Assembly (NCBI GenBank): GCA_030693295.1
Contig: JAUYAT010000008.1
Location: forward strand, 1-60,663
Direction: 5' to 3'
Length of the DNA stretch: 60,663 nt
From: a bacterium
GTDB taxonomy: Bacteria; Patescibacteriota; Patescibacteriia; Patescibacteriales; VMTK01
The notes under the pieces: generated by a model
What the model was told of the DNA's origin: nothing
The model's database searches: none
What the model saw: the letters and a program-made list of their open reading frames with translations, nothing else
Translations under genes and position numbers: made by a program
Part shown: positions 8,644-18,761 of the stretch, piece by piece
Position numbering within the stretch: the stretch's first letter is position 1
Layout: each line of letters starts with the position of its first letter

Positions 8644-8770
8644 AGTTTAAAAGTTTAAAAAATAAAATTAAAAATAATAATTATTCTGCTTTTATTATAC
8701 CATAAATAGCTGTCACTGAAAAAATCAACGATATTATCAAAAAACCTTTTAAGTTATTTTTAAATACTTT

Positions 8771-9003
8771 CCACATTAAAGTTAATAATTATTCCGCTTT
8801 TATTATAACACTTTTTAAATAAAATATAAAAACAGGCAGTCTGTTTGCCTGGGCTAAAAACTTTATCCACCCCGTTAGAAGCAGATCGCCCAGAGGCGAT
8901 CGTAGCCGTGCCTTCAGCAATGCGGCTTCTAACGGGGTCCGCAATTTAGGGCTTGACACAGATTGATAAACTGCTATACTTAAAATGTAGTTACGATGAA
9001 AAG
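8771..9003. repeat. Segmental duplicate copy 1 (carries a 72-nt hairpin insertion)
   Basis: ...ATTAAAGTTAATAATTATTCCGCTTTTATTATAACACTTTTTAAATAAAATATAAAAACAGGCAGTCTGTTTGCCTGGGCTAAAAACTTTATCC...GCTTGACA..TGCTATACTTAAAATGTA matches 9193-9355 apart from the insertion. Confidence 0.8.
8869..8938. mobile_element. ORF-less hairpin element of family P2 (ACCCCGTTAGAAGC...GCTTCTAACGGGGT), MITE-like
   Basis: 14-nt perfect terminal inverted repeats. The paralogous copy at 9283-9292 reads TTTATCCGCA uninterrupted, whereas here TTTATCC[element]CCGCA. Confidence 0.65.
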
Positions 9004-9150
9004 CCCCCTATGAGATTCTGTTCTCATGGGGTTCTTTTCTTTTAGATATACCCTGAATCTCTTGTAATCCAACTTCCAGCCCATTTCTTTGATGGCTAAA
9101 TATAGATTTTGTCCGTCAATAAACGCGTAATTGTTTAAATCCTGTTTCAT
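8980..9150 (-). pseudogene. Truncated NYN-domain gene copy (56-codon remnant)
   Basis: MKQDLNNYAFIDGQNLYLAIKEMGWKLDYKRFRVYLKEK matches the first ~38 aa of 9359..9874. It then diverges into a hairpin (CCCCATGAGAACAGAATCTCATAGGGGG) and stops. Confidence 0.6.
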
Positions 9151-9192
9151 AATTCTATTTACATTCAGATTAAATTATTTTTTAACATTTTT

Positions 9193-9355
9193 CGCATTAA
9201 AGTTAAAAATTATTCTGCTTTTATTATAACACTTTTTAAATAAAATATAAAAACAGGCAGTTTGTTTGCCTGGGCTAAAAATTTTATCCGCATTTTGGCG
9301 CTTGACATTGTTTTTGATTTTGCTATACTTATAATGTATCTATTACGAAACGTAC
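9193..9355. repeat. Segmental duplicate copy 2 (no insertion)
   Basis: See 8771-9003. Shares the module ending GCTTGACA-N16-TATACT. Confidence 0.8.
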
Positions 9356-9358
9356 TGC

Positions 9359-9874
9359 TTAAGGTTCTGTCCTTAGGTGGTGCGTTTTTTTATATTCTAA
9401 TCTTCCCCGCAACTCATTCATAAACTGTATTCTTTCTCTGGCTGTGTGTGTAAGTAAACTTGAACAAAAATTTTTATCTGGACTTAAAACAACTTCTAAT
9501 TTTTTATTTTCATACAAATATTCAACAAGAGAATAGAAATCTCCGTCATTAGATACAACAACAGCTTTGTTATATTCACTCATTTCAATGACGGCTCGCA
9601 AAACCAAATCAGCATCTATATTACCTTTAATTTTGCCATTTAAATCTGGAATTGTCGGTTTAAACTTAAGAATAAATCCTGCTTCCTGCAAACAATCATA
9701 TAATCCTTGATTAAGAGACACAAACCCAATAAACATATAGGCCTTGCTCACCCCATACTTTTCCTTAAGATAAATACGAAAACGGGCATAGTCCAATTTC
9801 CAACCCAAAATCTGAATACCCAGATTCAGATTTTGGCTATCTATAAACGCAAAATTATTTTCTTTTGAAATCAT
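9359..9874 (-). CDS. NYN-domain (LabA/DUF88-like) putative RNase
   Basis: ORF-track 9359..9943; the likely start is MISKENNFAFIDSQNLNLG at 9874. Followed by ...VVVSNDGDFYSLVEYL. Confidence 0.6.
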   Translation of the reverse strand: MISKENNFAFIDSQNLNLGIQILGWKLDYARFRIYLKEKYGVSKAYMFIGFVSLNQGLYDCLQEAGFILKFKPTIPDLNGKIKGNIDADLVLRAVIEMSEYNKAVVVSNDGDFYSLVEYLYENKKLEVVLSPDKNFCSSLLTHTARERIQFMNELRGRLEYKKTHHLRTEP

Positions 9875-9997: not shown

Positions 9998-10276
9998 TCA
10001 TATTTTGTCTGCGGCCAGCCCCGTTAGAGAAAGGAAGCGTTTCAAACGATTTTTAAGATAGCGCTTGCCGGGACCGGATTTTAAATACCTTTCTCTCGCA
10101 AAAGCATCGCTTTCGTTTTTACAAGCTTCATAATAAATTAATTCAAAAGGACCTCTGCATTTTGTGGCTATAACCTCACTATTATTGTGTTGTTTGAAAC
10201 GCTTCCGTAAATCATTAGTACATCCGGTATACCATCTATCATCCTTTTTGCTTTGTATTACATAAGTATAAAACAT
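9998..10276 (-). CDS. GIY-YIG nuclease family protein
   Basis: 92 aa: MFYTYVIQSKKDDRWYTGCTNDLRKRFKQHN...RERYLKSGPGKRYLK. Confidence 0.75.
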   Translation of the reverse strand: MFYTYVIQSKKDDRWYTGCTNDLRKRFKQHNNSEVIATKCRGPFELIYYEACKNESDAFARERYLKSGPGKRYLKNRLKRFLSLTGLAADKI

Positions 10277-10294
10277 AGTTTTTCTCTAACGGGG
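10019..10294. mobile_element. GIY-YIG gene bounded by P2-family terminal inverted repeats (candidate autonomous element)
   Basis: CCCCGTTAGAGAAA at 10019-10032 and TTTCTCTAACGGGG at 10281-10294 form a perfect 14-nt inverted repeat. CCAG sits directly outside both ends (10015-10018 and 10295-10298). Confidence 0.55.
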
Positions 10295-10347
10295 CCAGCC
10301 GCTAAAAATCCAGCCCGCTGTCATTGAAAAAATCAGCGACATTATTA

Positions 10348-10414
10348 ACCCCGTTAGAAATATGCCTCTTTTTGATGATTTTGCCATAGTTAGATGTTTA
10401 TTTTCTAACGGGGT
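10348..10414. mobile_element. ORF-less P2-family hairpin element
   Basis: ACCCCGTTAGAAA...TTTCTAACGGGGT, 67 nt, 54 nt from the GIY-YIG-containing copy. Confidence 0.6.
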
Positions 10415-10452
10415 AAAATTATTTTTTAACATTTTTCCCGTTAAAGTTAAAA

Positions 10453-18663: not shown

Positions 18664-18761
18664 ACCCCAGTTAAATAAAGCCGCTGATGAAGTTGGTGGT
18701 TAAAGATAAGTCGCAGTTGGTGGTCTAAAGCCACCAACAAGCGACACCTATTTAACGGGGT
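18664..18761. mobile_element. P2-related hairpin element (ACCCCAGTTAAATA...TATTTAACGGGGT)
   Basis: 12-bp terminal stem with one bulge. The interior hairpin is GTCGCAGTTGGTGG-tctaaag-CCACCAACAAGCGAC. Lies 42 nt upstream of tRNA-Val. Confidence 0.5.

Follow-up and report, generated by a model that had tools for sequence, protein, structure and literature searches.

The closest published counterpart of the hairpins described here is the Ssn/NTS system, in which GIY-YIG nucleases of ~94 aa, the Ssn proteins, cut single-stranded DNA beside hairpin repeats that flank their own genes (Chenal et al., Nat Commun 2025, PMC11893778). The IS-like layout of these loci was noted, as was their enrichment in symbionts with reduced genomes, whilst mobility was only hypothesised; no target duplication and no filled and empty sites were reported, and the word 'duplication' does not occur in the paper (PMC11893778). 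The cleavage by these tiny nucleases, which are assigned to the CDD family cd10448, is site-specific and falls next to their own hairpins, and how the repeats multiply was left open. In the parts of the REPIN/RAYT literature drawn on here, dispersed short palindromic repeats that are non-autonomous are accompanied by a low-copy enzyme gene flanked by the same repeats (PMC3116915, PMC3337134). A further group of palindromic repeats, the Rickettsia palindromic elements (RPEs), lie in frame in unrelated housekeeping genes and are translated as extra peptide segments (PMC10969869).

The window analysed here is the whole 60,663-nt stretch, taken from a genome (G000) of 1.06 Mb in 62 contigs with 40% GC, which was compared with a sister genome of the same genus (G001) with 92-98% DNA identity and with further genomes, all of them draft MAGs with the exception of one Omnitrophota chromosome. 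A module is present twice in the window, at 8749-9047 (copy 1) and 9170-9395 (copy 2), and the original prediction was that 8771-9003 and 9193-9355 are collinear apart from 72 extra nucleotides in copy 1, contributed by a hairpin that is not a conserved structural feature of the locus. Pairwise alignment with MAFFT bears this out, as the two stretches are separated by a single uninterrupted 72-column gap that is neither ragged nor multiple, the flanks around it are collinear and identity across the 120 nt upstream is 92%. The sister genome has one module copy together with an NYN gene (G001:C52), 96% identical to copy 2 of the window, and a three-way alignment places the identical 72-column gap in copy 2 and in G001, neither of which has the hairpin. 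Both empty sites read ...TTTA-TCCG-CA..., the target TCCG of copy 2 lying at 9287-9290.

The same base marks an empty site in the paralogue of this genome and in the G001 orthologue, so that the ancestral module had no insert and copy 1 acquired it. The 72 nt thus almost certainly result from the new insertion of a mobile element that lacks an ORF and has hairpin ends. In the reverse course of events the module would have carried the element from the outset, and copy 2 would have been cleared of it either through precise excision or through a deletion between short CC/TCC repeats. The short direct repeats that border the element could be cited in favour of such a loss, and in sequence alone a precise excision looks the same as a site never occupied. 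The loss is disfavoured as it would need two independent precise losses in place of one insertion, the single copy of G001 being empty at the identical base. G001 is also at background level for the whole hairpin family and the gap ends match the family ends exactly, so that loss from copy 2 is very improbable.

The insert itself had been read as a 70-nt element plus a duplicated CC. The letters are as described, since 8869-8938 reads ACCCCGTTAGAAGC...GCTTCTAACGGGGT with perfect 14-nt inverted ends and CC on either side, the sum is 72 nt, and at 8866-8941 alone the 2-bp reading fits without any mismatch. It is the division into element and duplication that has to be redrawn, as repeats across the family give a 68-nt core and a 4-bp duplication. 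Copies flanked by the repeats CCAG, CTTG, CAAA, CTCA and CGAG place the outer A/T of the 70-nt element within the duplication, and a 2-bp duplication with fixed A...T ends was rejected family-wide because C/G outer bases still match as a 4-bp repeat. At this locus the insertion therefore consists of a left duplication copy TCCA (8866-8869), an ORF-less core (8870-8937, CCCC...GGGG) and a right duplication copy TCCG (8938-8941) that is identical to the empty target. The core has perfect 13-nt arms, the inverted pair CCCCGTTAGAAGC (8870-8882) and GCTTCTAACGGGG (8925-8937), and an interior of two small hairpins. The last base of the left copy differs from the target (A for G), which could be due to a later transition, with an A-T pair replacing a G-T wobble at the base of the stem, or to imprecise repair.

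Folded as single-stranded DNA the element reaches -25.9 kcal/mol (z = -7.5 against shuffles), with a 14-bp stem closing the two small hairpins. Its terminus occurs four times in the window where 0.28 are expected, a number reached in 0 of 100 shuffles. The interior of the 68-nt core is unique within this genome, and a partial relative in G027 has the extended end GAAGCAGATCGC in common with it and carries a TGGA duplication. The only ORF spanning the element, of 56 aa, is a mechanical one.

The duplicated module into which the element inserted forms a regulatory block with signals of expression on both strands, found alike in copy 2. In copy 1 a minus-strand terminator (8851-8833) and a minus-strand promoter of the form TGnTATAAT (8830-8802) lie on one side, with a plus-strand promoter, TTGACA-16-TATACT (8953-8980), and the terminator of a short plus-strand transcript (9006-9031) on the other. 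The element sits between the minus-strand terminator and the plus-strand -35 box, and so within the 3' untranslated region of a truncated NYN copy, and no sign of function was found for the 72-nt insert at its landing site. The short plus-strand transcript is predicted to run antisense to NYN at the 3' end of that gene. The same arrangement recurs at 8953-9031, at 9302-9388 and in G001, where a near-consensus TTGACA-16-TATACT with TG is followed by a transcript of ~50 nt and a terminator with a TTCTGT loop, each time converging on the NYN ribonuclease gene from its 3' end. The ~50-nt transcript may serve to regulate NYN as a small antisense RNA.

Given this position between a terminator and a promoter, and a weak terminator-like match that overlaps the left end of the hairpin, it might be asked whether the hairpin is instead an immobile terminator or operator formed at this very spot. 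The same ends, with unrelated interiors, recur in many phyla and have 41 occurrences in this genome, half of the copies lie within coding regions, and the conserved module works without the hairpin in copy 2 and G001. These family-wide data refute a regulatory structure specific to this locus, to which we give hardly any credence, and it is as a mobile family that the hairpins are treated below.

Within G000 the family (P2) comprises 21 inverted pairs CCCCGTTAGA...TCTAACGGGG, with interiors of 30-98 nt that are mostly unrelated to one another and one interior of 276 nt; the 10-mer CCCCGTTAGA occurs 41 times, as against 2 for its reversed control. The original prediction had proposed a search for further filled and empty pairs and for a target-site consensus, and both were obtained. 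The flanks of the cores read Y-N-N-R at all 21 left and right positions, and exact 4-bp YNNR repeats enclose 13 of the 21 copies (permutation mean 2.4, maximum 9 in 10,000). When the joined flanks of 20 elements were compared with the four closest genomes, five or six further pairs were found against G001, in each of which the gap equals the core plus 4 bp. The sites filled in G000 and empty in G001 are C5:22814 (repeat TTAA), C7:8585 (TTTA), C21:14056 (TTGA) and C26:14506 (TAAA, with the G001 site reading TGAA), together with two that are less clean and have diverged repeats, C38:1916 and C20:6324. Taken with the filled and empty triple of the module, these pairs confirm that members of the family insert as discrete units and duplicate 4 bp of the target in doing so. 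A second ORF-less copy in the window, with a 65-nt core at 10349-10413 flanked by TTAA and TAAA, is also absent from G001, with a boundary that is not clean. Half-sites of the family number 41 in G000 and 4 in G001, the latter being the control level of that genome, from which it follows that the expansion of the family took place in G000 once the two genomes had diverged.

Two further ideas on where copies might settle were not upheld. None of the 43 tRNAs in the genome has family arms nearby, which rules out a clamp shared with nested tRNA genes, and just a few among the 21 copies are in contact with an ORF start, so that targeting of start codons is not a general rule. The genome also holds a separate repeat family with a similar AAACCCCGTTAAATA end, followed by GTGTCGC...GTTGGTGG-CTTTAGA-CCACCAAC, which is found in the window at 18716-18760 and elsewhere at C4:1628, C5:14051, C36:203 and 1208, and C19:164. 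The copy of this AAACCCCGTTAAATA family at C4:48 holds a short P2-type hairpin insert with a TAGA repeat.

Eleven of the 21 copies lie within long ORFs whose reading frame the insert does not interrupt, where they are translated as ...NPVR...LSNGV... or ...TPLD...LTG.... Their hosts include genes for a GatA-type amidase (PF01425, E = 6e-159), MnmA (mnmA), an amino-acid kinase, LigT and a TsaB/D-like protein, and uninterrupted versions of several of the host genes are present in G001. The length of core plus 4 is divisible by three in 16 of the 21 copies in G000 (P = 7e-5). In an independent sample from many phyla the same is true of 47 of 89 copies (P = 1e-4), and the 72-nt insert of copy 1 is likewise a multiple of three though it is intergenic. 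Copies of the family tolerate residence in frame within genes and appear to be selected for it. The MnmA-like ORF (C38:713-2077) has its P2 insert near residue 43 and, in addition, a segment of ~70 residues with ...SGNPGDSG..., whose sequence suggests a translated NTS-like arm (GGGAATCCAGGAG), that is a second hairpin family in frame in the same gene.

The one copy with a 276-nt interior lies ~1.1 kb from the 72-nt insert. It occupies 10015-10298 on the minus strand and consists of CCAG, a 276-nt core (10019-10294, with arms GCCCCGTTAGAGAAA) and a second CCAG. It carries a 92-aa ORF (9998-10276, minus strand) for a single-domain GIY-YIG nuclease (Pfam PF01541, E = 2e-17), which crosses an arm and terminates 21 nt beyond the element. 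The Pfam domain spans residues 1-67 and no further domain was found; NCBIfam has no family above cut-off for the protein, and its only sequence match in the PDB is the UPF0213 protein BH0048 (E = 4e-7). At this site G001 has a single CCAG and no insert, and GCGG-CCAG-CCG forms a clean empty site; its best match to the nuclease is 47% identical, so that the sister is without a close homologue. This ~280-bp unit, with nothing but the gene for a nuclease of ~90 aa, is the only protein-coding member of the family, no other protein-coding sequence in this genome being bounded by family ends.

The nuclease ATG is internal to the element in this unit. In those of G012:C3 (L075) and of the Ca. Velamenicoccus archaeovorus chromosome (L200, near 557,450) the start codon of the ORF is a flanking ATG (ATGAA|TCCCGTTAGA..., translated M-N-P-V-R-N), and judging from the reading frames these two units appear to borrow the start codon and ribosome-binding site of the host. 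NYN and beta-lactamase-like genes are repeatedly preceded by a short hydrophobic ORF, MLKNN...LIMSLIFSMTAGWIFSGW (10286-10432 on the minus strand, 8700-8795 and 9172-9200), which is broken in G000 by the 65-nt hairpin and the GIY-YIG unit and is continuous in G001. The window contains another GIY-YIG gene at 1875-2321, which has NTS-like arms, TTGTCATTCCC...GGGAATCCAGGAG, on its flanks.

The ends and the duplication are not confined to this genome. Exact 4-bp repeats enclose 12 of about 22 copies in relatives, and in other phyla 43 of the 89 copies (permutation mean 7.2, maximum 16); in that sample the longest repeat is of length four in 43 copies, as against 13 at k=2, 5 at k=3 and 1 at k=5. 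The same ends bracket related nuclease genes in eight other genomes. The closest homologues with these ends (46-68% identity overall) include those of G012, G006, G035 and G007 (49-68%), with further examples in G050, G095 and G149, and the Tyr/Tyr/Arg/His/Glu catalytic columns are invariant in 8 bracketed homologues. A pattern search found bracketed units of 275-300 nt in 9 of 301 genomes of the order, as against 1 for the control, and nearly all of them encode the nuclease.

The strict form of the pattern had no match in five distant hairpin-bearing genomes, and a protein search detected a bracketed nuclease homologue in three of the five, in units just outside the spacing range of the strict pattern. 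These are a Pirellulales MAG with a TTCA repeat, Ca. Velamenicoccus archaeovorus with a TGAA repeat, and a distant Patescibacteria MAG in which one arm is imperfect and there is no repeat. Exact P2 hairpins are also found on contigs binned as archaeal and possibly mis-binned, in an Aenigmatarchaeota MAG (L135) and a Methanosarcinales MAG (L145), with three copies on one archaeal-binned contig of 6.4 kb; the Aenigmatarchaeota bin yielded no GIY-YIG homologue. At G035:C20 (L020, 1398-1775) an ORF-less copy of 71 nt directly adjoins a GIY-YIG unit, the succession of parts being TGAA, hairpin, TTCA, unit, TGAA. The arrangement looks like one family member inserted beside or into another.

With the mobility of the hairpins established, the question becomes what moves them. 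G000 has the nuclease and a recent burst of hairpins, and G001 has no close homologue of the nuclease and hairpins at background only. Among 41 related genomes the carriage of hairpins and that of the bracketed gene go together (4 of 6 versus 1 of 35; Fisher P about 7e-4, for genomes that are not independent of one another). The explanation that we hold to be probable, taken as a whole, is that the hairpin copies are the non-autonomous family of a mobile element and are mobilised by the minimal GIY-YIG unit; the narrower proposition that the nuclease itself does the mobilising, which is read from sequence and distribution, we favour with a little less assurance. The nuclease would act in trans on the common ends and/or the YNNR target and make the breaks, and host ligation and gap filling would then generate the 4-bp duplication, with the hairpins standing to the minimal GIY-YIG element as MITE- or REPIN-like non-autonomous partners.

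The alternative to be weighed most seriously accepts that the hairpins are mobile and has them moved by some other transposase, or by host replication and repair acting on hairpins, the GIY-YIG gene being cargo or an invader of one hairpin loop in the manner of a homing endonuclease. The three genomes G002, G003 and G004 have 25-37 half-sites each, and a pattern search did not find the exact bracketed gene in them, G003 having a partial nuclease homologue cut by the end of a contig. Two of the five distant hairpin-bearing MAGs gave no nuclease homologue at all, and local linkage of hairpins to the gene is absent, with a GIY-YIG gene within about 4 kb at only 1 of 80 hairpin loci. GIY-YIG enzymes are hydrolytic nucleases that are not known to transfer strands or to join DNA. 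All of this would suit another mobiliser. No GIY-YIG enzyme is known to make a 4-nt stagger, and this, like the single-base mismatch of the duplication at the 72-nt insert (TCCA/TCCG), counts against the explanation that we prefer.

Candidates for that role were sought in G000, where one DDE_Tnp_1 gene and three or four rve genes are present; for a Y1 transposase there is a single PF01797 match, which falls below cut-off and lies elsewhere. The DDE and rve elements have ends unrelated to those of the hairpins, and on this ground the conventional transposases were set aside as mobilisers. No long-range partner was found in the genome for unpaired ends, as would mark a larger element with the same ends, and the nuclease gene is the only coding sequence that such ends enclose. 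The gene unit has moreover its own 4-bp duplication and clean empty site, and units with the same ends recur in distant phyla, which would not be expected of a passive passenger acquired independently. Another mobiliser with the GIY-YIG gene as cargo or invader is for these reasons regarded as improbable, though much less so than either the loss from copy 2 or the structure formed in place, and mobilisation by the GIY-YIG unit remains the preferred reading.

The filled and empty sites are direct evidence that the hairpin family moves, something that for similar pairs of nuclease and hairpin has only been guessed at in print. They supply, for one such pairing, the population-genetic evidence that was missing, both within a genome and between sisters, and add a 4-bp duplication with a defined form (YNNR) that is the same from phylum to phylum, and a recent burst in a genome with the nuclease, whose sister has neither. 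What is new here is the triple with an ancestral empty state at an ORF-less copy, the YNNR rule with its controls, the contrast between sisters and the bias to multiples of three. If the nuclease is the mobilising enzyme, this would be transposition by a hydrolytic nuclease and host repair, in an element of <300 bp. The in-frame copies, in the genes for the GatA-type amidase, mnmA and other housekeeping genes, show a route to extra peptide segments in reduced genomes and are a trap for the annotation and alignment of CPR genomes.

On the broader claim we are nearly evenly divided, leaning slightly against. It is that the hairpins and the ~280-bp GIY-YIG unit might form a new class of prokaryotic transposable element, with a nuclease of ~90 aa as its sole encoded protein, which would be the smallest autonomous mobile element known, inserting at YNNR with a 4-bp duplication, spread across bacterial phyla and possibly archaea, and with gene-less copies in frame in essential genes. 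No prokaryotic MITE or transposon linked to GIY-YIG was found in the literature searched; a preprint that mentions SsnA (10.64898/2026.09.22.753630) lies outside this comparison and is possibly on the same family.

It is with Ssn/NTS that the likeness is greatest. Both have a single-domain GIY-YIG nuclease of about 90-100 aa, here of 92 aa, and inverted repeats that flank its gene and are also present many times without it, and the catalytic residues mutated in Ssn (Y6, Y17 and E64) correspond to Y5, Y16 and E62 of the nuclease in the window (PMC11893778). The two differ in that the arms here pair across the gene, whereas in Ssn/NTS there is a separate hairpin on each side, and in that 2% of NTS lie in genes as against about half of the copies here (PMC11893778). 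Membership of the published SRM motif is ruled out, as the pattern HGTCWYN(0-2)YYVSBRHN(0-5)WNVSBRGN(0-2)RNCYNB matches 0 of 20 elements (14-nt flanks, both strands). The strict pattern also has no match anywhere in the window, the arms of the GIY-YIG gene at 1875-2321 included.

As in REPIN/RAYT systems, so far as those are covered by the parts of the sources drawn on, many dispersed palindromic repeats accompany a low-copy enzyme gene flanked by the same repeats, the partner being a GIY-YIG nuclease here and an HUH/Y1 transposase there. REPs lie outside genes and, as with IS200/IS605, are not known to duplicate their target, in contrast to the 4-bp duplication and frequent residence in genes of the hairpin family. 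The insertion in frame into coding genes, seen in the in-gene copies, resembles that of RPEs in behaviour only, with no relation of sequence implied; RPEs are about 150 bp long with conserved peptides, whereas the cores here are of 30-98 nt with variable interiors, and no link of RPEs to a GIY-YIG enzyme was met with in the literature searched.

Bacterial MITEs such as the Correia elements likewise have terminal inverted repeats, a target duplication, no ORF and ends in common with a coding partner (PMC10969869), and the 68-nt core answers to this description, being short and ORF-less with 13-nt terminal arms, flanked by a 4-bp YNNR repeat and matched by empty sites in its paralogue and in G001. 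The autonomous element with which a MITE has its ends in common encodes a transposase, and here the partner encodes only a GIY-YIG nuclease, which is not a known transposase. The hairpins thus depart from MITEs in that the partner is a ~280-bp unit with a 90-aa nuclease and not a DDE transposase IS, and in that the ends of the family are conserved letter for letter across phyla.
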